A stretch of DNA of 64,000 nucleotides from Escherichia coli (lineage in GTDB: Bacteria > Pseudomonadota > Gammaproteobacteria > Enterobacterales > Enterobacteriaceae), in NCBI RefSeq assembly GCF_016026235.1, contig NZ_CP065613.1; one strand, written 5' to 3'. A program made the translations under genes and the position numbers. Below, piece by piece: positions 10,818 through 28,849 of this stretch. How positions within the stretch are numbered: position 1 is the stretch's first letter; each line of letters starts with the position of its first letter. The notes under the pieces are model-generated. The model was not told where the DNA came from and made no database searches. It worked only from the letters and a program-made list of their open reading frames with translations.

Positions 10818-12264
10818 AATATTTCATCTCCCGAAACAGCCCGACCAGCTCATCTTCGGCACCATTGCGATTGTTCTTGTTCTCTCGACTGCTCATGCTA
10901 GGCAAAGGGAAGCCGTGCAGATCTCCCGGCAGACGAGCATCACGAATGGCACGGATCAGATTGTGCTCCAGCACATAGTTATCCATGGTTGCCAACTGCA
11001 CTACCTGCTGGCGGATGCGGCAGCGATAGGCCCAGATAAAGCACTTCTCGATGGCCAGTGACAGCCCTTGGCTGCCGAACTTGTCGATATAGAAGATCAG
11101 TGCGCAGTCGAACATGGCCCGCACATAACGATCCCCGGTGCGGTGGCGACGCTCGTAGCTGCCCAGGGTCGATAGCACCTTGCTGGCCATCGGTGTCAGC
11201 GTTTCGCCGAGCAGGGTGGCAGATTGCGCCTTGCCGGAATCAGACTCCTCGGCCACGATGGCGGCCACCCGCGTCTGGTAGTACTCGGCCATCTCGAAAA
11301 AGCGCCGACCATTGATGATCATCTGGTCGAGATGAAAGGGAAACGTCATGTACTGGCCGTCAATCTTGCGCTGGTACTGGCGGTTGTACTCATCGACAAA
11401 GTGGTGGGCGATGCGCAGCGACTCCACGTAAGGATAATGCCCTACCCGATCTAGGTTGACCCCCTTGAAGAGATCCACCTCCCCCTTGCCAAAGTAGCGG
11501 GCCGACTTGCCCTCGGCCCACTGGCGTACCCGATAGAGATAGAGGGCGAACAGATTGGCCAGCTCGTCGCTTGGCAGGCGCTCCCAATGGGCGACCGCCT
11601 CGGCCTTGAGATTGGCCTCATGACCGGCAAACTCGCGCAGGTGAAATGCCTTGAGCAGATCGTGAGGAGCCAGATCGCGCCCCCGGGCATTTTGCGAATC
11701 GAAGAACTGGAACGCCTCCGAGATATCCTGCAGTACAAAGCAGACCACCTGACAGCGGTTGAGCAGAAAGTCAATTTGCTGCTCGTCAAACTCAGGGCGG
11801 GCCACCAGCCGACGCAACTCCAGATAGTTGCGTCTGAGGTTGAACTCCGAATCCCGGCTGGGGAAGCGCTGGCGCTGCATAAACGCATCGATAGGTCCAC
11901 GCAAGACCTGCAATTGCTCACGCAGATCCTGACGTTGAAACCGGATACTCTTCTCTTTGCCACTGCGATTTTCGTTATCCAGCACCTCGATCAGCGCCTT
12001 GACGGTCAACATCAGGGTCAGGGTGCGTTGCTGACCATCGACGATATCAAGCATCTCGCCCTGCTCACTATCGGTGTGCTGATGAAACACCACCGAGCCC
12101 AGCCGGTAGGCGCTCTTGTCCTGATGGGTTGCCAAATCGGTAAAGAGATCCGAGATATTCTTGGAGCCCCAGCGGTAAGGTCGCTGATAGCTTGGGATGG
12201 CCAGTTGGGGAATGGCCAGCAACTGGCGTACCGACTGCACTTGATTATTAATGCTCTCCATCAT
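10810..12264 (-). CDS. DUF262 (ParB/GmrS-like NTPase) domain protein, 484 aa; upstream partner of a two-gene type IV restriction-like module
   Basis: '[12 protein letters not shown]' DGQQR motif and '[22 protein letters not shown]' typical of DUF262; overlaps the next gene's start (coupled). Confidence 0.8.
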
Positions 12265-12285
12265 GCCTCCTGCGGTATGAAGTGG

Positions 12286-12887
<602 letters not shown>

Positions 12888-12918
12888 GACAAATGAGCCC
12901 ATTGGAATAAGTTAGAAA

Positions 12919-13674
12919 CTACATATCTGCCAACAACATCCCAGCCATACCATCCAGTCGCTTCTTAACCTTTTCCCAGCCCGGCATAACCTGCCCCATC
13001 AGACGGTAAAACTCCTCGCTGTGGTTGTGCTCAGCCACATGGCATAACTCATGTAGCAAAACATAATCGATACATTCTGAGGATGCCTTAACCAGCCATG
13101 GATTCAGGGTCAGACAGCCTTTTGCTGAACAGTTGCCCCATTGCGTTTGCATCGCCCGCAGACGTATCGGAGGACGCTCACTGACCCAAAGGGTCTGCGG
13201 AATCAGTAAATCAAGCCTGCGCTGAAAAACATCTCTGGCACGTTCCCGATACCATTCAGCCAGCAAGGCTTTAATCTTTTCTGCCGATTTGTGTCTGACA
13301 GTCACTTCCAGACGCCCACGCAACATTTTCACTCGTTGCGGCACAGTAGCGTCTTCTGTCACTTTCAACTGATATTGCTTACCGAGATAATAATGGCTTT
13401 CTCCGCTGACATACTGACGCGGAACAATGTGTATCTGTTGCTCCCTGAAATCACGCAGTTGCTGGTATATCCAGCGCCCACGTTTTTTCAGCGCAGACAA
13501 TACCTCGTGCTCCGGTGTTTCAGGCGGTACAGAGGCCACAACCCGGCAGTCCGGATAAACCTTAATGAGCACCCTGCCCTTTACGACCTGACGCGGAACA
13601 CACTGTACGACGATGACCTCATCACCATAGACAATGCGTAACGCTTTCATTGATGGCGATTCTTTTTCACTCAT
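12919..13674 (-). CDS. M48-family / DUF45 (YgjP-like) zinc metallohydrolase, 251 aa, coupled to hsdR
   Basis: HExxH motif 'HELCHVAEHNH'; start overlaps the hsdR stop by 4 bp. Confidence 0.75.
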   Translation of the reverse strand: MSEKESPSMKALRIVYGDEVIVVQCVPRQVVKGRVLIKVYPDCRVVASVPPETPEHEVLSALKKRGRWIYQQLRDFREQQIHIVPRQYVSGESHYYLGKQYQLKVTEDATVPQRVKMLRGRLEVTVRHKSAEKIKALLAEWYRERARDVFQRRLDLLIPQTLWVSERPPIRLRAMQTQWGNCSAKGCLTLNPWLVKASSECIDYVLLHELCHVAEHNHSEEFYRLMGQVMPGWEKVKKRLDGMAGMLLADM

Positions 13675-16600
13675 GATTTCATCAAACCAACGCGCAGTAT
13701 CTGGATGATGGTTTCAACAATACGGTTAACCTGATTCATTCCGGCACCAATTTCCCGGCAGGCCGTAAACAGCAGTGGTAGCAGACTTGTCTTAACGACT
13801 TTCTCAATGTCCTGGGGGTTCAGGGAGTTTTCTGCCACCGCTTTGACGATAATGTTGTCCACTTCAAAAGCCAGCTTCGTCCACTTATCCTGCACCTGAA
13901 CGTCGTTTACCGCAAAAACCTCAGGTAGCTCTTTTTTAAATACACCGTAATACGCCTGAGCATGCTTGTTTACCGCCAGTGCATCCGGGATATCGCTGAG
14001 CTTACGGGCTTCAACCTGTTCTTCAAATTCACGGAACAAAAGGTACTGTTTCAGCGGATGGTCAAACAGTTTTTCAGCCTCTTCGATAGCCATACGCAGG
14101 AGTTTTGAAAATGCCTCCTGAGCATACGGGTCATCACGCAATTCCTGCTCAATCATCTTTGTCACACGGGTTTTAATGATGTCGGTTTCATTGCGGGTTT
14201 TATTGTTGTCCCACTCTTCGGGCTTTTCGCTCTTGCCCATTTTACCGACTTCATACACGCCATCCGGTTCACGAACTTCAACGCCGGTGACATGCTTATC
14301 CAGCAGTTTTTTCACCTGCTCAGCGTAGTCGTCATAATTGACCTGCTCTCCACTTACCTGCATCGCCCACTGGCGCAGGCTGGACATCTGTTTTACGGTT
14401 TCTTTATAGAGATTTCGGTCTTGTTCCGTAAAGCTCTTGTCGGTGAAGAAGGTAGCGGACTGCAGTGCCACTTTCAGGCATCCGGCAAAGGCCGTTAACG
14501 CCTCGAAGAAATCATCACGGGTTTTCTGATGGATATCGACCATCTCTCCGTCACGTTCTTCCATTTTAGGCACCAGTACCGCACGTAACTGCTCAGTATC
14601 ATTTTTGTTTTTAACACCGGCAAATATGGCCCACAGCTGGTTATACAGATGCGGCAGGCGCTTGTATTCAGAGCTCATGGCGCTGTACAGCCCGTCAATA
14701 TCTTTGATATCGTATCCGCCCTGAGTTCGGGAGGCGAGGTCCTGATATTTGCCGATAGTCGTGTCCAGCTCAGCCAGAATACCGCGATAATCAATCAGCA
14801 GACCGAACTTTTTTAGTGGATGCAGTCGGTTCACCCGCGCAATCGCCTGGATAAGGTTGTGGGACTTAAGCGGCTTGTCGATATACAGCACGGTATTCTT
14901 CGGCTCATCAAACCCGGTGAGCAGTTTATCAACGACTATCAGCAATTTGAGCTTCTCATCGGTATCGAAACGACTGATGACATTACGGGTATACACAGAC
15001 TCATCCTGCGTGCCGACATTATCCTTCCACCATTTCGTCACTTCCGGCAGTTTGCTTTCATCCACTTCGGTATTCCCTTCCCGGGTATCCGGCGGGCTGA
15101 TAACTACAGCTGACTCAAACAACCCGGCTTCATCAAGATACTTTTTATATTTGATGGCGGAAATCTTGCTGTCGCAGGCAAGCTGGCCTTTCAGTCCCTC
15201 ATCAATATTCTTCGAGAAGTGCGTGGCGATATCGAGTGCGATCAGACGGATGCGATCATCTGCACTATAAACCTCACCTTTACGGGCATATTTACGCTTC
15301 AGGTCGGCTTTTTGCGCTTCGCTTAACCCATCGGTAATACGATCAAACCAGGCATCTATTGCCCGATCGTTAACCTCAAGGTCGGGAATACGTTCTTCAT
15401 ACAGCAAAGGTGTAACGGCTTTATCTTCTACCGCTCGCTGCATGGTATAAGCGTGGACAATCGGCCCGAATTTATTAGTGGTCTTATCTTCTTTCAGCAA
15501 CGGCGTACCGGTAAATGCCACAAAGGCGGCGTTCGGCAGTGCCAGTTTCATTCGCACATGGTTCTCACCCCCCTGGCTCCGGTGTCCTTCATCAATCAGT
15601 ACGATGATGTCGGGGCTGGTATTGACGCATTCAGGAAGTTTTGTCGCTGAATTAAATTTCTGGATAAGGGTGAAGATAATGCGTTCTTTACCAGAGCCAA
15701 TCTGCTGTGCCAGTTTCTGGCCAGAGGTCGCCATTGCTTTGGCCTTATCATCCTTTCCGGCCAGTTCGCCACCAGAAGCGAAAGTGCCGCTGAGCTGCCC
15801 TTCAAGATCGACACGGTCCGTCACCACCACAATGCGACACTGCTTCAGGCTGTCATGAAGAATCAGCGCCTTACTGAGGAACACCATGGTGTACGATTTA
15901 CCGGAGCCCGTGGTATGCCAGATCACACCACCTTCTCTGCCCCCGTCCGGTCTGCGGGTGCTTATGCGTTCCAGCAGCCTTTTAATCCCGAACACCTGCT
16001 GATAGCGGGCGACAATTTTCCCGGTCTTTTTATCAAACAGGGTGAAAAAGCGGGTCATCTCCAGCAGACGTTCCGGTGAAAGCAGGCTGATGAGCAGCTT
16101 ATCCTGCCCGCTGACGGCCAGTTCACCGGCGGCGATTAACTGTTGGTACCAGTCGAGATCGGCTGAAGGACGATGATCAAACAACGCATGAATTTGTTCA
16201 GTCGATAACTTATGGTTGCGCAGCGCATACATCTGCGCGTAAGTAATATCTTCTTCGCGCCATGCCGCCCAGAATTTCATTGGTGTATGACAGGTACCGT
16301 AGCGCCCGTCATGCCCGTTAATCGACAGTAATATCTGGCTGTAAGCAAACAGCTGCGGGATTTCGTCGTTGAGCTGATTGCGGATACTCTGGGATATCCC
16401 TTCGTCAATGGTTGGCCCTTTCTTGCCGTGACCCGCCGGGCTTTTCGCTTCAATGACGGCCAGCGGGATACCATTCACAAAACACACAATATCCGGTCTG
16501 CGGGTTTCGACACCGCCTGACCGCAATACCGTAAATTCTTCGGTAAAATGGAACTGGTTATTTTCCGGATGTTCCCAGTCGATCAGCGCAATGGTGGGGT

Positions 16601-16958
16601 TCACCTTCTTGCCATCGACAAACTCCGTGACGGCGATACCGTAGAGCAGATGGTTATACATCCGTTCATTGGCTTTGAGCAGCCCTTCATTGAGCGCCGG
16701 AGAACAGACCTGTGATATCAGGTTATCCAGTGCTTTTTCCGATAACTGGCAGGTTTTGCCACCCGCCATAAAGGAACGCTTCGACAGCTCTTCACGCAGA
16801 ACCGGACGCAGCACCACCTCATCCTGTTTATAGCCCCGGTAATCCATAATCTGTTTCGGAGATAAAAACGTCCAGCCGAGGCTGGTCAGTAACGTCAGTG
16901 CCGGAATTTTGGCGCTGTATTCTTCCTGGAATTTTGGCGTGTACGTCTGGTTCATCAT
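13671..16958 (-). CDS. hsdR: Type I restriction enzyme R subunit (HsdR), 1095 aa
   Basis: Walker A 'TGSGKSYTM', DEAD-like 'DEGHRSQ', and a size typical of HsdR; sits in an operon with hsdM and hsdS. Confidence 0.9.
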   Translation of the reverse strand: MMNQTYTPKFQEEYSAKIPALTLLTSLGWTFLSPKQIMDYRGYKQDEVVLRPVLREELSKRSFMAGGKTCQLSEKALDNLISQVCSPALNEGLLKANERMYNHLLYGIAVTEFVDGKKVNPTIALIDWEHPENNQFHFTEEFTVLRSGGVETRRPDIVCFVNGIPLAVIEAKSPAGHGKKGPTIDEGISQSIRNQLNDEIPQLFAYSQILLSINGHDGRYGTCHTPMKFWAAWREEDITYAQMYALRNHKLSTEQIHALFDHRPSADLDWYQQLIAAGELAVSGQDKLLISLLSPERLLEMTRFFTLFDKKTGKIVARYQQVFGIKRLLERISTRRPDGGREGGVIWHTTGSGKSYTMVFLSKALILHDSLKQCRIVVVTDRVDLEGQLSGTFASGGELAGKDDKAKAMATSGQKLAQQIGSGKERIIFTLIQKFNSATKLPECVNTSPDIIVLIDEGHRSQGGENHVRMKLALPNAAFVAFTGTPLLKEDKTTNKFGPIVHAYTMQRAVEDKAVTPLLYEERIPDLEVNDRAIDAWFDRITDGLSEAQKADLKRKYARKGEVYSADDRIRLIALDIATHFSKNIDEGLKGQLACDSKISAIKYKKYLDEAGLFESAVVISPPDTREGNTEVDESKLPEVTKWWKDNVGTQDESVYTRNVISRFDTDEKLKLLIVVDKLLTGFDEPKNTVLYIDKPLKSHNLIQAIARVNRLHPLKKFGLLIDYRGILAELDTTIGKYQDLASRTQGGYDIKDIDGLYSAMSSEYKRLPHLYNQLWAIFAGVKNKNDTEQLRAVLVPKMEERDGEMVDIHQKTRDDFFEALTAFAGCLKVALQSATFFTDKSFTEQDRNLYKETVKQMSSLRQWAMQVSGEQVNYDDYAEQVKKLLDKHVTGVEVREPDGVYEVGKMGKSEKPEEWDNNKTRNETDIIKTRVTKMIEQELRDDPYAQEAFSKLLRMAIEEAEKLFDHPLKQYLLFREFEEQVEARKLSDIPDALAVNKHAQAYYGVFKKELPEVFAVNDVQVQDKWTKLAFEVDNIIVKAVAENSLNPQDIEKVVKTSLLPLLFTACREIGAGMNQVNRIVETIIQILRVGLMKS

Positions 16959-17007
16959 TAATCCTTTTCTTTCTGGCGCTACTCGCTACTGGTCACATGA
17001 AGATTCA

Positions 17008-17691
17008 TCAATGCAGACAGCACTTCTTAAATTTTTTACCGCTGCCACACGGACACGGGTCATTTCGCCCGGGCATGTTTTCTGCCCCCTTCACTGGAAC
17101 AGGCCGGGATGATGCCTCTGACATTCTCACCGACAACCAGTGCTGGTAAAGCGCCAGTGCCGCAGGCTGAATGAGAGTAATACTCTGTTCAAATTGAACA
17201 GGTGACATTTTCTCAACCACTGGGAAGTTCTTTTCGATACCATGAAGGGCTATCGCCTCCAGCGAGGGACGTAAGGCCTCTGGCAAGGCTGACCAGTCAT
17301 CCAGAGACCGGCCTTTCATATACCCGAAACACCACTCTTCGACGATTGTATATGTCTTCCCCTTCACCTCACGTCCATTGAAAATCGGTTCAAACTGTTC
17401 AGGGGCCTCATACAGGCAGCCAGCGATATCGTTCATATGCTGAAAACACAGCCCCACAAAACGCGTCATCTCTTTTTCAGTGGTCCAGTGAGGGTAGTAG
17501 TCACCTCGCCCCCAGATAGCACTAAGCCAGGTATTAGGGGGGATCATATTCGGGCCAGAGACAATCGCTGTCAGAAAGCCATCCAGCTCAGAGAAACAGA
17601 GCACAGAGTCATCATTGCCGTATTTCAGCAACACCTCTTCCAGCCAGTCGATTTCCCGGTCAATCAGCGGCCCGCTTTTCGTCAGTTTCAT
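17008..17691 (-). CDS. YecA-like UPF0149 protein with C-terminal SEC-C zinc motif, 227 aa, embedded between hsdS and hsdR
   Basis: C-terminal '[18 protein letters not shown]' SEC-C motif; overall similarity to the YecA family as I remember it; start overlaps the hsdS stop. Confidence 0.75.
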
Positions 17692-18914
17692 TCGGCAACC
17701 GCCTCATCGACCTTAACACGACGTTTGCCAGTCAATAGCTGTTGCATCAGGGCTTTTTTCTCATCTCTCAGGCAGGCGAGTTTTTTCTCCAGCGTGGAGA
17801 TTTCGGTGTCAGCAGCGGACAGCACGGCGGCGATTTTTTGTTGCTCTTTAATAAATGGGCAAGAAAAGCTTAAAGTTTCAAAATCTTTCTTGGAAAGTTC
17901 TAAAAATGTTGAGCCAGATGATTTTTTGATCATCTCATTTGTGTTCATTTGCAACAAATAATAAATAAATTCGATATTAAACCCTTCATTCGGAATGATG
18001 TTTTTAAAACCTTGATTGGTACAAATTTCCGATGTCGAAATTGCTAAAGCACCAATGGTAGCTCTTGTACATACCATCAAACTACCTTTTGGCAAAAGAA
18101 CAGCTGAGCTATTTAGTAATCCCGCAGGAGTAATTTTTCTACTAGTATTGCTAACGAACCTACCCGTTAATGCAGTAACATCAGTTGGGGTAAGCCATAG
18201 AATATCGCCTTCCCAATACATGGCCATGTTTGTATCAGGTGTTCCACCGGATACAACTTTGCCCATTTGTATTAGTTTAGTAATTTTCCACTCCCCACTA
18301 AACCTCACCCCATTCTCATCCAACAACCGTTTATTCCCGGTAAGCAATTGCTGCATCAGGGCTTTTTTCTGCTGTTGACTGTTGGCGAGAAGGCTTTCCG
18401 TCACCGAAATTGCCTTATCCCAGGCGGTCAGAATTTGAGATATTTTATCTTGTTCACAAATAGCAGGAGTTTTTATGTTTAACGCTCTAATATCAGAAAG
18501 GTTAATTCTAGAAAAGGTAGAACCACCTGCACTTTTTGCTATCTGTCGCTGGACTAAATCTGATTGTAATGTGTAGTAAATAAACCGCCAATCTGCATGG
18601 ATTGCTTTAATTAAGACAGTGTCTTGCCCTAATACAAATGGCTTTTTGGAATCCACATAGCTAACAACACCGACAGACTGGTTACGACTCATAACCAAAT
18701 CACCTTGTTCAACAACACAGTGATCCATCAGAGAGCGATATTCTTCTTCTGTAACTCTTTTTACAGGTGAAATCAGATCTAAGGCTCCCCATTTTATCGT
18801 CCCCGGTGAGACAAGTGGTATTCCCGATTTAACGTACTCAGGAGTCCTGTGTTTGCAATCGATTATCGACGCAACCGATGAGAGTTTCTGAGATGACCAC
18901 CCCTTAGGAATCAT
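17688..18914 (-). CDS. hsdS: Type I restriction-modification specificity subunit (HsdS), two target-recognition domains
   Basis: Two copies of the conserved '[11 protein letters not shown](N/K)(K/R)R' repeat separating two variable domains. Confidence 0.9.
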
Positions 18915-20427
18915 AACCCAACTCCTTCAGATACCCCGCCATCTCCGTTTCCAGCTTCGCCAGTTCCGCCTTCAGTTGCTCGCGTTCGGCGCGTACGGCC
19001 AGCAAATCAATCTCGTCTTCTTCTTCAAAGGTATCGACATAGCGCGGAATATTGAGGTTGTAATCGTTGTCCTGAATTTCCTTCAGGCTGGCAAGATAGG
19101 CGTATTTCTCGACGTTATCGCCATCACGGTAGGTCTTGACGATTTTCTTAATGTTTTCTTCGCTAAGCTGGTTCTGGTTTTTACCTGCCTTGAATTCACG
19201 GCTGGCATCGATAAACAGCACCTTGTCATCAACTTTCTGCTTTTTGAAAATCAGAATCGCAGCCGGAATCCCCGTACCGTAGAACAGTTTTTCCGGCAGA
19301 CCAATTACCGCATCCAGCAAATTTTCGTCGATCAGTTTCTGGCGAATTTTACCTTCGCTGGAGCCACGGAAAAGCACACCGTGTGGCACAACTACGCCCA
19401 TACGGCCAGTTCCCGGTTTCAGGGTTTCGATCATATGCGAGATAAAAGCGTAATCTCCTTTAGTCTTCGGCGGTACACCGCGACGAAAACGGCCAAACTT
19501 ATCGTTCTCGGCCTCGTCATGGCCCCACTTATCGAGGCTGAACGGTGGGTTAGCGGTCACGATATCAAACAGCATCAGGTCGCCATTTTTATCGAGCAGC
19601 TTCGGGTTGCGAATGGTATCGCCCCACTCGATTTTATGGTTGTCTTCCCCGTGCAGGAACATATTCATTTTCGCCAGCGACCACGTAGAACCGATCGCTT
19701 CCTGACCGAACAATGCATAGTTACGACTATCATGCCCGGAGACAATTTTACGCCCACACTTCATCAATAATGAACCGGAACCACAGGCTGGATCGCAGAT
19801 GGTATCACCCGGTTGCGGATCGAGCAGTTCTGCAATCAGGTCCGAAACTTCCGGCGGGGTATAGAACTCCCCGGCTTTCTGCCCACCGCTGGCGGCAAAG
19901 TTTTTGATCAGGTATTCGTAAGCATTGCCGATAACGTCCAGCGTACCGACACGACTCGGCTTCAGGTTGAGATCTTCACCGGCGAAGTCTTCCAGTAGCT
20001 GACGAAGGATGGTGTTTTTCTGTTTTTCTTCGCCAAGACGATCGGTGTTAAACGAAATATCCTGGAACACGCTTTTCCCGGCATCTTTCAGTTTGGTTCC
20101 GTTGGCTTCTTCGATTGCATGCAGAGCCTGATCGATACGCTCACCGTTACCCGGCTCATGGCGGCGTTCGTACAGCGCATAAAAGCTGGCACTTTTTGGC
20201 AGTACAAAACGCTCGTTGGCCATCATCGCTTCAATCAGTTCCGGCACATCGCCATACTGTTCTTTGTATTCGTCATAGTGATCCTGCCAGACATCTGAAA
20301 TGTACTTGAGGAACAGCATGGTAAGGATAAAGTCTTTATAGGTATCAGCACTGATGGTGCCACGGAACGTATCACACGCGGCCCACAGGGCTTTGTTGAT
20401 CGTGTCCTGACTGATTTTGTCGTTCAT
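18904..20427 (-). CDS. hsdM: Type I restriction-modification N6-adenine DNA methyltransferase (HsdM), 507 aa
   Basis: AdoMet motif 'DPACGSGSLL' and catalytic 'NPPF' ('IVTANPPFS'). Confidence 0.9.
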   Translation of the reverse strand: MNDKISQDTINKALWAACDTFRGTISADTYKDFILTMLFLKYISDVWQDHYDEYKEQYGDVPELIEAMMANERFVLPKSASFYALYERRHEPGNGERIDQALHAIEEANGTKLKDAGKSVFQDISFNTDRLGEEKQKNTILRQLLEDFAGEDLNLKPSRVGTLDVIGNAYEYLIKNFAASGGQKAGEFYTPPEVSDLIAELLDPQPGDTICDPACGSGSLLMKCGRKIVSGHDSRNYALFGQEAIGSTWSLAKMNMFLHGEDNHKIEWGDTIRNPKLLDKNGDLMLFDIVTANPPFSLDKWGHDEAENDKFGRFRRGVPPKTKGDYAFISHMIETLKPGTGRMGVVVPHGVLFRGSSEGKIRQKLIDENLLDAVIGLPEKLFYGTGIPAAILIFKKQKVDDKVLFIDASREFKAGKNQNQLSEENIKKIVKTYRDGDNVEKYAYLASLKEIQDNDYNLNIPRYVDTFEEEDEIDLLAVRAEREQLKAELAKLETEMAGYLKELGYDS

Positions 20428-20799
20428 GAATCATCCTGGTCTGAAGAAAAAGCTAGCGATGCAGGGCTTTGCATCTTAAAAATTTCGGTAAATGATACCG
20501 TAAGATGCCTCCCCTGACACGCCAATATCGCAGCATTCAGGTTTGCATCATCCCCGTAATATCGACATGAGACAGACTGACACAACCTGGCTCGTCACTC
20601 GCTAAAAACCAATTATCTTAGTAAGATAGCATCCATATTAGCCATGGTGTAAAACTGCCGTTGGGGTAATGATGATCCATATATCACCCGTTCTGGTGTG
20701 TGAAGCTGACATCATCCATAATCGGCAACGTTGATGCCCTTTGATAGTAATGATGACCGTCAATGTGATTCCCCTGCTGACTGGAGGTCTCCGGATAGT

Positions 20800-21966
20800 A
20801 TGAGTATTACCAACTGCGTTATCGGCCCACTTTACGATGAGCAAATAAAAAAAACACTTATGTATGCTGACCATAAATTCAAGCGGCTAATGAATACACG
20901 AATGTCGTTACTCGAACATTTATCACCCCACTATGACTTATCTTCCATGTTCAGCTATGAGTTGGAGGGAAGAGTTTTTCGGATTAAATTGATCAAGCCT
21001 GAGATTAAATTATCTCGCCAGCAGTTGATCTTCTCCTCACTCTTTTTAGAGCAAGATTTTCTAAAAGAATATAAAAAACACATCTCAAATACTCTACAAA
21101 AAACAATCAAACAGTGCATTAAAAAATACAAACAAAAAATCAAAATCGAGCCTTCTATTTTAGATTACATATCAGCGTCACCCCGCAATACGTCGAGTTA
21201 TGTATTACATGAGATAGTTTCTCAATGTGAACATTGCGATGAAATTCGCAATATTAAAAATGATATATTGCTTGATGAACTAACGTTGAATGGCCGGATC
21301 ACTAACATTTCAAAATACATTAAAAACAGTCAAGATAAAATCGTCGAACATATAGAGTTCTGCACTCATAAACTTGTCAATATAAGTCGTAAGAATCGTC
21401 ACATTTTCAACAGCACCACAATCTCTGGCAGAAAACCCAACATCACTGGTGTTTTACTTTGCCTTTCAGAATTGATAAGCAACCTGCATATTTACCCAAC
21501 TGAAATTAATAATATAAGCAATGCCATAATATTAAGCATTGTATACTCTGTACTTCAACATCTTCAATCCGGAAGAAAAACAGAAAAAACAAAAACCTCT
21601 CCAGCACTGGATTTCATCCCCACCATCATCGCACCTCATGTTTTCTACCTGGCGAAACGCGAAAAATCCTCTCAATATAAATACATTGAAAAAGAATATC
21701 TTCTCGGCCAGTTACTTATATTTTTGATGTATAAAACAGTTTACTACTCGATTCATAACATCAGGGTAAGCCGTAAGCATTTCTATAACGATATAAAACC
21801 AAAATTAATGATACTAAAAAAAGAAAGCTTATTAAGCACCAATTTCATGAAAAATCGAAGAGAGATTAGTGGTGAAGTCTTTGGTGATGTTGGTAGTATT
21901 GAGGCTGATTTTCGAGAAATCAGCACATTGATTCATCGGCGAAAGGCTCTGTTTATTTCCTTTTAA
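20800..21966 (+). CDS. Hypothetical protein, very AT-rich, no recognisable domain (~388 aa from the ATG at 20800; ORF extends to 20731)
   Basis: Long ORF in a strongly AT-rich stretch; Lys/Ile/Asn-rich; SD-like 'ggagg' upstream of the ATG at 20800. Confidence 0.5.
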   Translation: MSITNCVIGPLYDEQIKKTLMYADHKFKRLMNTRMSLLEHLSPHYDLSSMFSYELEGRVFRIKLIKPEIKLSRQQLIFSSLFLEQDFLKEYKKHISNTLQKTIKQCIKKYKQKIKIEPSILDYISASPRNTSSYVLHEIVSQCEHCDEIRNIKNDILLDELTLNGRITNISKYIKNSQDKIVEHIEFCTHKLVNISRKNRHIFNSTTISGRKPNITGVLLCLSELISNLHIYPTEINNISNAIILSIVYSVLQHLQSGRKTEKTKTSPALDFIPTIIAPHVFYLAKREKSSQYKYIEKEYLLGQLLIFLMYKTVYYSIHNIRVSRKHFYNDIKPKLMILKKESLLSTNFMKNRREISGEVFGDVGSIEADFREISTLIHRRKALFISF

Positions 21967-22368
21967 TCTTTAGAGAACACTATATCATCGTGAAGCAGAG
22001 CTAATTTCAGCCTTGCATAGATCATTATCAATGCCATAGACAGTGTTAATCATATGACATCGTTCCGGTATTGATACTGATTATCAGGCCTTGGTTTTAT
22101 GTAATTTAAACACCACCATCTCTGAAACCTCACAGTGCTCATATTTTAACCATAAAAACTAACCGATTTACACCCGCCACACACCGTCATAACTTATTGT
22201 ATTTAAATAGCTATAAGCCTCTAACTCACTGATTACACCATTAAATTCAAGCCATATCCTTACGCAGATTCAAGCTTGCCCCTGCTGCCATTCACGTTTT
22301 AGGATTACCTCGCTAACACGACATGCTACTTTTTAAATCAGTGTAATAATTCAAACGAGGATAAAATT

Positions 22369-23499
22369 ATGTTCGAGAAAATGAAAAACAATGTAACCCG
22401 TATGCCGGGGAATTTAACAAAACTTAATCAATACCAAAAAGACATTGATCACCTGTCTAAACTATTTTCTGAACAGCAATTACTGGAACTAATGACGACT
22501 ACCGAATCCGATCAAATATTGCAAATGAAGCCTGCTGTAGATATTCTTCATGTACTATCTCCATCAGCATCTACTGCTAAGCATATCAATTTTTTTCAGC
22601 ACGTCCCAGTGCTCGAACAATGGTTAAAAAAGGAGTGCACTGCCTTTAATTTACTGGCAGTACATTTCTATTCACAGCAATCCCGTAAAAATGTAATTCC
22701 GAAAGAAATCTGTATGCTACTGGATGCATTTATTGAAACTGAACTTTCATCTGCGGTTAATGGTAATAATAATGCCGAACTCCTTTCTTGTTTTCAAAAC
22801 ACGCTGGATAAAATGTGCAATACACTAACATTTATAGACCACACAGTTACGGAACAATCAGGTCAAGTAGCAATGCTTGATTTCAGCGCAAAAATGCATG
22901 AATATACTGTTGAAATCAGGACCTTTTTGAAGTCTGAATACTGGCTAAACAAACTACCTAAGGATATTAACATTCCAGCCATTGACCTATCCTGGCTTGT
23001 GTTTTGTTACTTTTGCTCTGAATATCTTTTTGTATTTATTCAAACAACGCTCAATACAATGAAGGCAGGAAAAATCATTCGTGATAACTACCTTTATCAT
23101 CCTAAAATGATTGCATTGATCATTTTATCTATGCTGCCTTATGAAGTCATTCATAACGATGGATCACTGAATAAGTTTAAAACGCCTTTAACCAGCCCTG
23201 ATGAGTTCATAATCAAATCTATTTGCATTAAAGGTAAGCAAAACACTACAGGGCATAAAAAAGATATAGAACAATTGCTTCGTAAGACATATATCTATAT
23301 TGCATTACTCTTAAACCCTGAGTGGGCACCATCTTCCAAGGAGTTGATTTCCTTTTTATCAGGAAAGTCCTCAGTGATAAGTGGTTCACTCAACTTCCAG
23401 TCAACCTCCAGTGGTCTGGGTGTTCAAACAAACAATATAACTCTTCTTAAGAATGAGGTTTACTTCGAAAAAATAGCGAACAAGATCATGAAACTGTAG
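22369..23499 (+). CDS. Hypothetical protein, AT-rich, no recognisable domain, 376 aa
   Basis: Long ORF in the same AT-rich stretch; 'gaggataaaatt' SD precedes the ATG. Confidence 0.5.
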   Translation: MFEKMKNNVTRMPGNLTKLNQYQKDIDHLSKLFSEQQLLELMTTTESDQILQMKPAVDILHVLSPSASTAKHINFFQHVPVLEQWLKKECTAFNLLAVHFYSQQSRKNVIPKEICMLLDAFIETELSSAVNGNNNAELLSCFQNTLDKMCNTLTFIDHTVTEQSGQVAMLDFSAKMHEYTVEIRTFLKSEYWLNKLPKDINIPAIDLSWLVFCYFCSEYLFVFIQTTLNTMKAGKIIRDNYLYHPKMIALIILSMLPYEVIHNDGSLNKFKTPLTSPDEFIIKSICIKGKQNTTGHKKDIEQLLRKTYIYIALLLNPEWAPSSKELISFLSGKSSVISGSLNFQSTSSGLGVQTNNITLLKNEVYFEKIANKIMKL

Positions 23500-23642: not shown

Positions 23643-24779
23643 ATGCCTATTCTGGATCTGCGTTTCAGCAACAAATCAATTCACCAACTTCCACATCCCC
23701 TCACGGGTTGTCAGGAATACCGTGATATTCACTGCCAAAACCTGCGTGCTCTGGTGTATCCCAATCGGATCACGCTGGCCTTTCGTGCCACTATAAACAA
23801 TCAGCGTATATATGAAACCCTGGGTCAGTTCCCTCAGCTCTGCGTTGAGGATGCCCGTCAGCATGTGATGAAACTGCTTGCTGATAAAAATCGTCTTGCG
23901 GTTCAGTCCCGTCGATTCACTGTGGAACAGGCCATCAATGACCTGTGGCTACCGGATTTGCAGTTGTATAAAAAGAGTCCTCAGTCAGAGTTGTCAAAAC
24001 TCAACCTCTACGTTCGCCCGTTCTGGGGCAAGCGGCAACTTCGCGACATCACGGCAGGAGAACTAGAACAATATGCTGCTGGCTTACGGGAAAAATTACG
24101 TCCGTCAACAGTAAACCGTATCCTCGCAATATTGTCCAAAATATGCTCTCTGGCAGTACGTGCTGGATGGATCACACATTCCCCGATGTCACATGTCCGC
24201 TATCTGAAAGAAAATAACATTCGCTATCGCACACTGTCAGCGACAGAAATCCCGCGCTTTATTGACGCGGCAACAGCGCTGCAAACACCGGCAGCTGATT
24301 CTATATTGCTTGCTCTTTATACGGGGATGCGTATTGGTGAGGTATGTACCCTGAAATGGGAGTACTGGCACCCGGATATGCATCAACTCATACTGCCTGA
24401 TACAAAGTCCGGACACCCTTTCACCTGCCCACTTGCACCTCCAGCCATTGCAGTTGTCCAGTGCCAGCAGGACCTGATGCTCAGCAAAACTTACATTTTT
24501 CCACAACTAACCGACAATGCCCGCCCTCTGGCATATCCGCGTGCAACCTTTGCCCGTATTTGCCGGGATGCCGACATTGATAACCTGCGGATGCATGACC
24601 TGCGCCGTACCTTTGCCACCCGGGTACTACAGGCGACCGGGGATATTGCAATCGCTTCCCATCTGCTAAATCACCATTCACTCACGGCGACCCGTCGCTA
24701 CGCTTTTCACAATGCAGCGACATCACACGCAGTGGTTTCTCAGGTCATAGAAAGTTATGACACAAAAATGAACCTATGA
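23643..24779 (+). CDS. Tyrosine recombinase / phage-type integrase (second integrase of the island), 378 aa
   Basis: Catalytic-domain pattern 'LYTGMRIGEV...MHDLRRTFATR...LNHHSLTATRRYA' (R..H-x-x-R..Y); SD 'aggaga' before the ATG. Confidence 0.8.
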   Translation: MPILDLRFSNKSIHQLPHPLTGCQEYRDIHCQNLRALVYPNRITLAFRATINNQRIYETLGQFPQLCVEDARQHVMKLLADKNRLAVQSRRFTVEQAINDLWLPDLQLYKKSPQSELSKLNLYVRPFWGKRQLRDITAGELEQYAAGLREKLRPSTVNRILAILSKICSLAVRAGWITHSPMSHVRYLKENNIRYRTLSATEIPRFIDAATALQTPAADSILLALYTGMRIGEVCTLKWEYWHPDMHQLILPDTKSGHPFTCPLAPPAIAVVQCQQDLMLSKTYIFPQLTDNARPLAYPRATFARICRDADIDNLRMHDLRRTFATRVLQATGDIAIASHLLNHHSLTATRRYAFHNAATSHAVVSQVIESYDTKMNL

Positions 24780-26286: not shown

Positions 26287-27486
26287 TCACATCTGCTTCG
26301 TAGCCGCAGTATTCAGAAGCAGGTCAGTCACTCCCTGCCCTGTCTGACGCATACGTTCCGGTGTTAATTTCGCGTAACGTTCTGTACTCTGAATACTGGC
26401 ATGCGCCAGTTGGGCTTTAACGTCATACAGGCTGAATTGACCACTCGAAACCAGTAAAGAGGCAACAGAATGACGTGTGGTGTGAAAACAGACTTCATTC
26501 TTGTCTATACCGCACTGTGCCAGTATTTTTTCATATGCCCATCGGGGTTCCGATATCGGTTTTCCATTATCCTTAATGGCGAACAGATACGGATTACTGC
26601 CAACTCGTGGGATAGCATCAATAATCGATAATGCGGCATCGCTTAGATATACCGTCCGACTGCGACCATTTTTTGTATAAGGAATGAACAGAGTACGATT
26701 GGCCCGGTCGATATGTTCATGCCTGACATTAAGCATTTCTGATTTGCGTGTACCGGTTAACAACAACATGGCTATCAATCCCCCGGCAGCTTTGTTGGGA
26801 TATTGGGTAGCAGCGTCAAGAATGCGCCTGATCTCATCAGCATCAAAAAAGCGCGTCCGCTGATTATTCTCTTTCAGTAAAGGGATCTTATCGGCTTCAT
26901 TCTTTTCCAGCACATCCTGTCGCAACGCATAACGCCCCATCGTTTTCAGAATAGCAAGGGCTCTGTTACAGGTAGACGGCGCATATTGCTGCCCGTGAAT
27001 ACGCCCCTCCAGCATGTCAAACAGCACCTGTTGTATCTCTCTGGCCCTGAGATCGCAGTAACGTATCTTTCCCAGACGAGGTTCAATGTATTGCGTGAAA
27101 CGCTGAACATCCTTATCCCAGGACTTTTTATGGCGTTTGATGAACGGAACATAGGTCTGGTGAAAAAACTCACTAAGTGTTGGCATCGCACGATAATTAT
27201 CGCGTTCTGCTTTAGGGTCATTTCCCAGTGCAATCGCCTCCTTATGACGGCGAGCTATCTGGCGAGCTGTCCCCACATCAATTTCAGGGAATCTGCCAAT
27301 ACTGATACTTTTTTTGGTACCGTGGAATGTGTAGCGCAGGAGGAAACGTTTGTTACCCGTTCGACCTGAGAGACATTTGAGGCCAATAACTTCGGTATCA
27401 GATACCTCAAGCTCTGTAGATCTGGTATCTGTGTTTGCCGGAAGGGCTTTGATGGATGAATTGGTGAATCGGAAGGATTTTTGCAT
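26287..27486 (-). CDS. int: P4-type tyrosine integrase (tRNA-proximal integrase of the island); probable start at the Met at 27486, ORF extends to 27516
   Basis: 'LLLTGTRKSEMLNVRHEHI' and 'CFHTTRHSVASLL...STERYAKL' catalytic motifs; N-terminal 'FTNSSIKALP' arm-binding region; 'gaggat' SD before the ATG at 27486. Confidence 0.85.
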   Translation of the reverse strand: MQKSFRFTNSSIKALPANTDTRSTELEVSDTEVIGLKCLSGRTGNKRFLLRYTFHGTKKSISIGRFPEIDVGTARQIARRHKEAIALGNDPKAERDNYRAMPTLSEFFHQTYVPFIKRHKKSWDKDVQRFTQYIEPRLGKIRYCDLRAREIQQVLFDMLEGRIHGQQYAPSTCNRALAILKTMGRYALRQDVLEKNEADKIPLLKENNQRTRFFDADEIRRILDAATQYPNKAAGGLIAMLLLTGTRKSEMLNVRHEHIDRANRTLFIPYTKNGRSRTVYLSDAALSIIDAIPRVGSNPYLFAIKDNGKPISEPRWAYEKILAQCGIDKNEVCFHTTRHSVASLLVSSGQFSLYDVKAQLAHASIQSTERYAKLTPERMRQTGQGVTDLLLNTAATKQM

Positions 27487-27566
27487 ATTTATCCTCATGT
27501 ATCTGATTGATATCATGGAGATAATATATATCTGAAGGTGTTTTTATTACGGGGCAGGATTGAAGA

Positions 27567-28307: not shown

Positions 28308-28491
28308 AGCATTACAGCTTGCTCAGCGGCCCCCTTCCCGGAAGCGTACCGGAAAACAGGCAAAGCGGCCTGGTTCTCTATGCTGGAAGCGACACGTTCG
28401 ATTCGGCATTGCCAGGCTGAAGATTGCAGCTCATCGCACCCCGTGAGCACAGGATATGCACAGGACATGAATTTCAGGCACAAAAAAACCA

Positions 28492-28520
28492 CCCGGAGGT
28501 GGTTTCACGACACTGCTTAT
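28492..28520 (-). terminator. Rho-independent terminator of the glyW-cysT-leuZ tRNA operon
   Basis: Minus-strand hairpin 'gaaaccacctccgggtggttt' followed by a T-run, directly 3' of tRNA-Leu. Confidence 0.8.
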
Positions 28521-28546
28521 TGCTTTGATTATTCTTGTCTTTCCCA

Positions 28547-28633
28547 TGGTACCCGGAGCGGGACTTGAACCCGCACAGCGCGAACGCCGAGGGATTTTAA
28601 ATCCCTTGTGTCTACCGATTCCACCATCCGGGC
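28547..28633 (-). tRNA. leuZ: tRNA-Leu (anticodon UAA), 87 nt
   Basis: Minus-strand sequence gcccggatggtggaatcggtagacacaagggattTAAaatccc...gggtacca; long variable arm and CCA end. Confidence 0.95.
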
Positions 28634-28645
28634 TCGGGAAGAAAA

Positions 28646-28719
28646 TGGAGGCGCGTTCCGGAGTCGAACCGGACTAGACGGATTTGCAATCCGCTACATA
28701 ACCGCTTTGTTAACGCGCC
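28646..28719 (-). tRNA. cysT: tRNA-Cys (anticodon GCA), 74 nt
   Basis: Minus-strand sequence ggcgcgttaacaaagcggttatgtagcggattGCAaatccg...cgcctcca. Confidence 0.95.
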
Positions 28720-28773
28720 AAATTCTTCAGGCCTTTCAGCCAGACATCCGCTTGACGCCGATGTCTTTTAAAC

Positions 28774-28849
<76 letters not shown>

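Follow-up and report, generated by a model that had tools for sequence, protein, structure and literature searches.

The window examined here is a 64,000-nucleotide (nt) stretch of Escherichia coli DNA (contig NZ_CP065613.1 of assembly GCF_016026235.1) in which five open reading frames (ORFs) on the minus strand, spanning positions 12919-20427, constitute a type I restriction-modification (R-M) operon with two additional genes. The operon opens with hsdM (18904-20427), predicted to encode the N6-adenine methyltransferase subunit (507 aa, with N6_Mtase and HsdM_N domains), and continues with hsdS (17688-18914) for the specificity subunit (408 aa, two Methylase_S stretches). Then follow a yecA-like gene (17008-17691; 227 aa, UPF0149 plus SEC-C), hsdR (13671-16958) for the restriction/translocase subunit (1095 aa, HSDR_N, SWI2_SNF2 and T1R_D3-like domains; 1094 aa in RefSeq, which starts it one ATG later), and a gene (12919-13674) for a YgjP-like (DUF45, PF01863) zinc metallohydrolase of 251 aa, labelled 'M48 family' or 'SprT family' in RefSeq and called the protease below. 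Direct reading confirmed the five genes and, to the nucleotide, the three overlaps reported in the original prediction: hsdM and hsdS share 11 nt, hsdS and the yecA-like gene 4 nt (ATGA), and hsdR and the protease gene likewise 4 nt (ATGA). The statement that every junction overlaps went too far, since the yecA-like gene and hsdR are 49 nt apart (52 nt if measured to the second ATG). The spacer at this sole non-overlapping junction (16959-17007, minus strand) contains an AAGGA ribosome-binding site and is identical in three related operons (L007, L011 and L006); simple scans of it gave no terminator-like or promoter-like match. The tight junctions, together with a gap free of terminator-like sequence, make it plausible that the five genes form one transcription unit in which translation is coupled across three of the junctions, as inferred from the sequence. 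The presumed promoter region upstream of hsdM (20428-20530, minus strand) offers weak consensus matches only, with one sigma-70-like sequence (GTGTCA-17-TATCAT, 9/12) at 20520-20492, and promoter-like sites were not enriched over shuffled sequences in this region (8 found, 10.1 expected) or across the operon. No loss-of-function lesions were seen in the operon genes.

The profile scores of the core subunits lie far above the curated cutoffs, and the description of the locus as a type I R-M operon with two extra genes was thus well founded. HsdM matches N6_Mtase (PF02384) at 4e-107 and HsdM_N (PF12161) at 9e-22 and reaches 284 bits with the NCBIfam model TIGR00497 hsdM (cutoff 243). HsdR matches HSDR_N (9e-47), SWI2_SNF2 (1e-75), T1R_D3-like (1e-24) and also ResIII, scores 464 bits against TIGR00348 hsdR (cutoff 285), and has the expected layout of an N-terminal PD-(D/E)xK nuclease region followed by a superfamily 2 (SF2) translocase motor. 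In HsdS, two target-recognition domains (TRDs; TRD1 at about aa 1-150, TRD2 at about aa 205-350) alternate with conserved repeats at aa 151-200 and 351-408 that are 45% identical to each other. Compared with the HsdS of strain EC-JS426, TRD1 is 100% identical while TRD2 is unrelated (15-33% identity), which bears out the two distinct TRDs seen earlier and shows classic domain shuffling. Judged by these features the type I gene set is complete and intact. From what is known of the family, HsdM2S1 would methylate a bipartite target set by the two TRDs, and the addition of HsdR would convert it into an ATP-driven translocating endonuclease. Assignment to type IA (EcoKI-like) was rejected: HsdR and HsdS gave no BLASTP match to the EcoKI proteins and HsdM is only 26% identical; the gene order of K-12 EcoKI, R-M-S, is also unlike the M-S-R order of the window. 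Of the two reference subunits, EcoR124II M (237 bits) resembles HsdM more than EcoKI M (100 bits) does. Type IC (EcoR124I-like) was likewise rejected, as the gene order is the same but the HsdR match is limited to the motor domain (aa 297-517, E = 3.5e-32), and the 237 bits of HsdM against EcoR124 M fall below its scores against unrelated solved methyltransferases.

The system belongs to a family with a fixed layout. A scan of one genome per species for HsdR relatives yielded 79 loci from many phyla, with 34-99% identity to the window protein, which were annotated with iterated profiles of the five window proteins. HsdR identity falls into bands, 88-99% in Enterobacterales, 68-77% in other Gammaproteobacteria and 34-46% in Bacteroidota, Firmicutes, Planctomycetes, Nitrospirota and others. 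Throughout the family hsdM and then hsdS lie upstream of hsdR, and in all 75 loci that extend past hsdR a YgjP-like gene overlaps the hsdR stop codon or begins no more than 22 nt from it. Across loci, identity to the window HsdR and identity to the window protease are closely correlated (r = 0.96). The layout hsdM, hsdS, variable cargo slot, hsdR, YgjP-like gene is thus common to members from different phyla, and the protease gene, always there and coupled to hsdR, in effect counts as a fourth core gene. An independent check started from the protease: an all-database profile search gave 7,081 clusters at E <= 1e-30, the best 150 of which are all stand-alone proteins of 229-313 aa, and three of four sampled long-form representatives are encoded directly after an HsdR of the same family. 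The statement that DUF45-type hydrolases are recurrent companions of type I systems is strongly borne out for this HsdR family by both the 75 informative loci and this sample. The gene order, on the other hand, is not unusual as had been supposed; it is the norm of the family and matches that of a published island of enteropathogenic E. coli (EPEC), the RRDM island (PMC12255303). Many of the distant loci (L014, L028, L032 and others) have a half-size ORF of about 200 aa matching the HsdS profile directly before hsdM, and distant loci often contain extra genes between hsdM and hsdS; the window has neither.

The variable part of the family is the interval between hsdS and hsdR. Among 69 loci, 12 have an interval of at most 120 nt; in 53 it exceeds 300 nt, the longest reaching 6.5 kb. 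Where its contents were checked, and only for those loci are they named here, it holds a CBASS cyclase with McrBC-like genes, SIR2-HerA, a Septu PtuA-like ATPase, a pAgo/Schlafen-like protein, RhuM (PDC-S05) or, in Microbulbifer, McrBC; the EPEC island carries DarTG2 at this position (PMC12255303). The hsdS-hsdR junction is therefore the slot in which the family carries other defence genes. A yecA-like gene occupies it in seven of the 69 loci, all from Enterobacterales, six of which also have a gene for a 620-aa protein described below. A yecA-like cargo gene is found in Klebsiella quasipneumoniae as well, and the Microbulbifer operon has a 51%-identical version followed by McrBC. In Providencia an intact copy lies next to a GmrSD gene and what is left of a truncated hsdS, and no hsdR-protease pair adjoins it. 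Wherever present, the yecA-like gene is the first after hsdS, with other cargo following, and in every junction read (E. coli, Klebsiella, Microbulbifer) it overlaps the hsdS stop by 1-4 nt.

A natural series of layout variants at the same chromosomal hotspot, between yecA and the tRNA gene leuZ, helps to separate core from cargo. The window, L007, L011 and L013, together with plasmid L012, have the order hsdM, hsdS, yecA-like, hsdR, protease gene; L008 has the 620-aa gene inserted after the yecA-like gene; L009 has hsdS and hsdR separated by 21 nt with nothing between them; and L010 is a remnant with hsdR and the protease gene. The sister operon L009, at the same hotspot and 95% identical in DNA sequence, is thus without the yecA-like gene altogether. 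Because such sister operons lack it, the yecA-like gene is optional cargo and not part of the R-M core, and it cannot be counted as an integral component of the operon as first described. The protein of 594-620 aa that often follows it is encoded at positions 7107-8969 of L008 (E. coli CP66-6) and also in L005, L020-22, L026, L031, L034 and Klebsiella plasmids; it is absent from the window. It gave a sub-threshold cold-shock-domain match only, with no PADLOC or NCBIfam match. About 199 complete E. coli genomes, and several other Enterobacterales, have its gene after that of the YecA paralogue, and in everything inspected it was never encountered without the paralogue. The two may form an unrecognised two-gene cassette.

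The yecA-like product is a clear member of the YecA family. It combines UPF0149 (4.5e-30) with SEC-C (2.2e-10), scores 349 bits with the NCBIfam YecA equivalog model NF007704 (cutoff 149) and is 58% identical to core YecA. It also matches the PADLOC model PDC-S12 at 324 bits, with aa 5-227 covering profile positions 2-218 of 218. Database homologues split into an R-M-embedded group at 68-100% identity and core YecA proteins at no more than 59%, and in 57 of 60 neighbour-joining bootstraps the enteric R-M-embedded proteins formed a single clade. The Microbulbifer copy is as close to the embedded clade as to the core clade (49%). A recent copying of core yecA into the operon was considered and is ruled out by the 58% identity and the separate clade. 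The housekeeping yecA lies directly outside the start of the window, about 17 kb from the embedded paralogue in the same genome, and this adjacency is explained by the integration of the surrounding island at leuZ, the neighbour of yecA. Four cysteines in the tail (C213, C215, C224, C225) never vary, and at least 90% of sequences also have H227. Among PDB entries, metal-binding-domain (MBD) peptides of SecA and YchJ match the tail. Core YecA has the more acidic N-terminal domain of the two proteins. An AlphaFold 2 (AF2) model reached a predicted local distance difference test (pLDDT) score of 75, which is moderate, and gave no informative structural match beyond YgfB. The protein evolves rapidly, with 76-96% identity between operons whose HsdR proteins are 95-99% identical, and its synonymous divergence (dS) resembles that of the adjacent hypervariable hsdS region rather than that of hsdR. 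In L006 (4469-5119), an otherwise intact operon on a metagenome contig, the middle segment of the paralogue is locally scrambled, as a double frameshift or an assembly error might leave it.

The protease matches the YgjP-like family PF01863 with 197 bits (cutoff 26) over aa 35-241. Its HExxHx5H motif (H208, E209, H212 and H218) is invariant across phyla. Gluzincins of the M48 type have HExxH together with a downstream Glu as third zinc ligand; 'M48' appears to be a loose label here, and the sequence profile supports YgjP-like (PF01863) membership. With E. coli K-12 YgjP (167 aa) it shares only the motif region, 25% identity over 60 aa, and by this comparison the window protein represents a distinct long-form YgjP-like subfamily. 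The AF2 model is confident (pLDDT 90.6), and the predicted fold is nearest to archaeal minigluzincins and then to the DNA-protein-crosslink (DPC) proteases Spartan and Wss1. An N-terminal beta-rich domain of about 165 residues and a long helix have no solved counterpart among the matches. They set the protein apart from the minigluzincins (proabylysin, selecase), Spartan/SprT and Wss1/WLM, from which its bacterial origin and its linkage to R-M also distinguish it. Modules for binding DNA, ubiquitin or SUMO were not recognised in it.

Conservation across genomes had been suggested as a check. The whole operon (>=80% coverage) occurs in 395 of 5426 complete E. coli genomes and on 340 plasmids, the hsdR-protease pair in 540 of the genomes (~10%), the yecA-like gene in 417, and the 620-aa 'cold-shock-domain' gene after it in 199. 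The matching plasmid records number 383; Klebsiella accounts for 360 of them, and conjugative transfer is predicted for 364. Pairwise Nei-Gojobori comparisons of the window with eight other operons gave ratios of nonsynonymous to synonymous divergence (dN/dS) between 0.02 and 0.28, indicating purifying selection on all five genes: 0.02-0.04 for hsdM, 0.03-0.07 for hsdR, 0.04-0.28 for the protease gene and 0.05-0.19 for the yecA-like gene. Since the same operon is widespread and its genes are under purifying selection, the five-gene arrangement is not a chance ORF pattern. The YecA paralogue in particular is maintained by selection although it is optional, and since its placement is conserved as well it is unlikely to be a neutral passenger.

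The operon is part of a defence island of about 28 kb (~28.4 kb) at the tRNA-Leu gene leuZ. The host is E. coli, and the operon DNA is 100% identical to that of strain FDAARGOS_943. Direct repeats of 114 nt, containing the 3' part of leuZ, mark the two ends of the island (window positions 1-114 and 28491-28602), and an integrase gene (26287-27516) lies next to the leuZ-cysT-glyW tRNA cluster (28547-28849); a second integrase-like gene (23643-24779) and IS1 copies also lie inside the island. The island is integrative, and the operon in it is horizontally mobile. Other occupants include hhe (DUF4011; 2076-8600, minus strand), an anti-phage helicase-nuclease gene which in the window is interrupted by an IS110-family element and a copy of IS1 (~350-1827 and 4342-5109), leaving two ORFs. 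It is intact in FDAARGOS_943, so that the window differs from its best-matching complete genome outside the operon. Two overlapping GmrSD-like (DUF262) genes follow on the minus strand (8775-10817 and 10810-12264), one with a GmrSD_C nuclease domain and the other with DUF7834, for which HEC-06 and SspE-like are the best PADLOC models. This pair is again found together with the R-M operon in K. quasipneumoniae and, in E. coli, on an F plasmid of the Klebsiella type. Divergent from hsdM are two plus-strand ORFs of 411 aa (20731-21966) and 376 aa (22369-23499), neither with a match in Pfam, NCBIfam or PADLOC. Homologues lie beside the same R-M operon in other E. coli (97%) and in Citrobacter amalonaticus and C. 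koseri (87-93%), and in four more loci hsdM has a more distant relative of the 376-aa protein (36-43% identity) beside it. The two ORFs may represent further cargo of the island, perhaps for defence. An Rfam scan of positions 12000-22000 found nothing.

The layout of the operon is already described, and the embedded gene is already catalogued as a PADLOC candidate. The closest published layout is that of the RRDM island of EPEC E2348/69, RptR-HsdM-HsdS-DarT-DarG-HsdR-M48, which has the same order as the window (NAR 2025, PMC12255303). The authors of that study described the hsdS-hsdR site as a likely recombination hotspot for defence genes and the M48 gene as a conserved neighbour (PMC12255303). 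The cargo is DarTG2 in the RRDM island and the YecA paralogue in the window, and the RRDM island has the RptR repressor with TAGCTA repeats, which the window lacks. A search for an RptR-like regulator gene upstream of hsdM found none, the sole ORF there (20638-20874, 78 aa) having no convincing protein character; one GCTAGCT near-match to the RptR palindrome TAGCTA occurs ~26-32 nt upstream of the hsdM ATG, with no direct-repeat series. A blastn search of complete E. coli genomes, reaching down to ~65% identity, returned almost nothing below 80% and no hit identifiable as the EPEC RRDM island, the inclusion of E2348/69 in the set being unconfirmed. The type I system of the 2008 EPEC paper is a different, EcoR124I-like one.

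Other parallels concern the individual parts. As in the window, the type IC system EcoprrI has an extra gene between hsdS and hsdR of an M-S-R operon, in this case prrC. PrrC is a tRNA nuclease that the R-M complex holds in a latent state, whereas the YecA paralogue has no nuclease or toxin domain; moreover the window HsdR is only distantly related to the type IC protein, through the motor domain (E = 3.5e-32). EcoprrI is not known to have a downstream protease gene. The PADLOC model PDC-S12, which the YecA-like protein matches from end to end, is a bioinformatic candidate; the genes behind the model are ones that lie within BREX, DISARM or type I R-M systems ('guilt by embedding'; Payne et al., bioRxiv 2024). 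We found no report of anti-phage activity for PDC-S12, nor was it found by name in the text or supplement files of the Payne preprint, whose supplement tables use anonymous family IDs. Core YecA (AscA) has the same architecture of UPF0149 and a SecA-like metal-binding domain, with an identical metal-binding tail, and is reported to bind SecB and ribosomes through this tail and to have holdase activity (bioRxiv 10.1101/2020.07.21.215244). The embedded copy differs in its location, a mobile R-M operon rather than the yecA locus, and in being less acidic and evolving faster. By analogy, and with its holdase-type UPF0149 domain and basic zinc knuckle, the paralogue would be a protein-binding adaptor, a role that we weakly infer from these features.

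Taken as a whole, the locus is probably best explained as an intact, mobile type I R-M operon of a family found across phyla, with a slot for defence cargo between hsdS and hsdR and a YgjP-like gene coupled to hsdR. Several observations weigh against parts of this explanation. One of the four sampled long-form YgjP-like proteins is not encoded beside any HsdR, and the short E. coli YgjP is a paralogue in a housekeeping context, so that the fold is not restricted to R-M systems. No HsdR-protease fusion occurs among the 150 best protease representatives or in the census, and a physical interaction of the two proteins therefore remains hypothetical. About 23% of E. coli carriers of the hsdR-protease pair are without the YecA paralogue. 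The paralogue is not an enzyme and often travels with the 620-aa protein, McrBC or GmrSD, and its role may lie with those second genes rather than with R-M. Finally, any role of the protease or of the YecA paralogue is putative. The RRDM study left its M48 gene out of its functional tests, and our search of the literature on DUF45, COG1451 or M48 in connection with type I R-M found descriptive mentions only and no functional study.

As to the protease, the role that we favour, though only tentatively and at less than even confidence, is that of a self-encoded restriction-alleviation factor acting on HsdR. Its substrates would be HsdR molecules, or entire restriction complexes, that have stalled or are translocating on host DNA lacking modification. 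This would amount to a restriction alleviation independent of the host, and the operon could then establish itself in naive hosts without ClpXP or Lon. This role is favoured because proteolysis of HsdR is how self-restriction is prevented in E. coli and P. aeruginosa, where it takes place when the host DNA is under-methylated: ClpXP acts on translocating EcoKI (PMC4231737; PMC11109961), and Lon together with AsrA acts on P. aeruginosa HsdR in a translocation-dependent manner (iREN; bioRxiv 10.1101/2024.10.21.619520). It is also favoured because the gene is tied to hsdR and not to hsdM or hsdS, and co-diverges with it like a subunit, and because, minigluzincins aside, the nearest characterised folds belong to enzymes that clear proteins stuck on DNA. 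ClpXP and Lon/AsrA are host-encoded AAA+ machines, however, and the candidate of the window is a small zinc protease encoded by the operon. The constant linkage to hsdR would also suit an offensive or back-up component that degrades phage or plasmid anti-restriction proteins, or an abortive-infection effector released, like PrrC, on inhibition of the R-M complex. PrrC in EcoprrI is a precedent for a latent effector guarded by a type I enzyme, and the metalloprotease ArdC serves the opposite side of the same conflict (PMC7213743). We nevertheless regard this as distinctly unlikely, since effectors and counter-counter-defence genes are usually variable cargo, while the protease gene does not vary across phyla and diverges in step with HsdR (r = 0.96), as expected of a core subunit or a regulator. 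A slot of the PrrC type, besides, is found upstream of hsdR and not downstream. It is more improbable by far that the accessory genes are neutral hitch-hikers, or the last gene a nucleotide pyrophosphatase, with no specific role in restriction. Such a view can point to the absence of the YecA paralogue from about a quarter of carriers, to the one long-form YgjP-like gene without HsdR nearby, and to E. coli YgjP, which has been described as a weak UTP pyrophosphatase. Both accessory genes are under purifying selection, though, and neutrality cannot explain an adjacency kept, with conserved overlap, in 75 of 75 loci across phyla; the HExxHx5H motif never varies, and the modelled fold is that of a protease.

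For the YecA paralogue two readings compete. It is possible, without being the expected outcome, that the gene is an autonomous anti-phage gene that is parked in the slot for co-mobility and co-expression and acts independently of R-M, for instance by means of a SecA-type zinc knuckle that blocks or senses phage protein synthesis on ribosomes or SecB. The full-length match to PDC-S12 (324 bits), a model built by 'guilt by embedding', would fit such a function, as would the self-sufficient defence systems that otherwise occupy the slot, the intact Providencia copy beside an hsdS remnant with no hsdR-protease pair adjacent, and a fast protein evolution that resembles that of arms-race genes. Yet the protein has no enzymatic or toxin domain and PDC entries are bioinformatic candidates. 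In all E. coli rows inspected, moreover, the gene is next to hsdS, and its overlap with the hsdS stop suggests stoichiometric co-production with HsdS. In the other reading the paralogue would be an accessory of the R-M system: a dedicated holdase or adaptor for aggregation-prone HsdS or HsdR during assembly, or else a factor that gates HsdR loading, or whose basic tail binds anti-restriction proteins of the acidic, DNA-mimicking kind. Its gene shows translational coupling to hsdS and is always the next one, any other cargo coming behind, its dS tracks the hypervariable hsdS region and not hsdR, the tail is invariant with an N-terminal domain less acidic than in core YecA, and core YecA as a holdase binds an acidic surface of SecB through the same tail. 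An accessory function of this kind is nonetheless somewhat doubtful. Close relatives without the yecA-like gene are intact and common, so that the R-M core does not need it; binding to any such partner is hypothetical, and the moderate AF2 model (pLDDT 75) has no informative match beyond YgfB.

A bolder proposal would combine both accessory genes. The protease would be an obligatory fourth core part, mediating restriction alleviation in the manner of a DPC protease, and the YecA paralogue, recruited from a housekeeping Sec/ribosome chaperone, would be an adaptor tethered to ribosomes or SecB, through which the R-M complex or the slot cargo is connected with the sensing of phage infection or of anti-restriction proteins. 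We consider this combination unlikely as it stands. If it were true, the self-encoded removal of HsdR would explain the spread of the family between phyla, and if the protease were shown to control HsdR, it would represent a portable autoimmunity control for type I enzymes and account for their establishment in new hosts. The YecA paralogue, for its part, clearly exemplifies the duplication of a housekeeping chaperone gene into a defence operon and makes the 'guilt by embedding' idea tractable to test. The frequency of the operon and of the hsdR-protease pair in E. coli and on Klebsiella conjugative plasmids makes the system a practical barrier to phage therapy and to DNA transfer in clinical strains.

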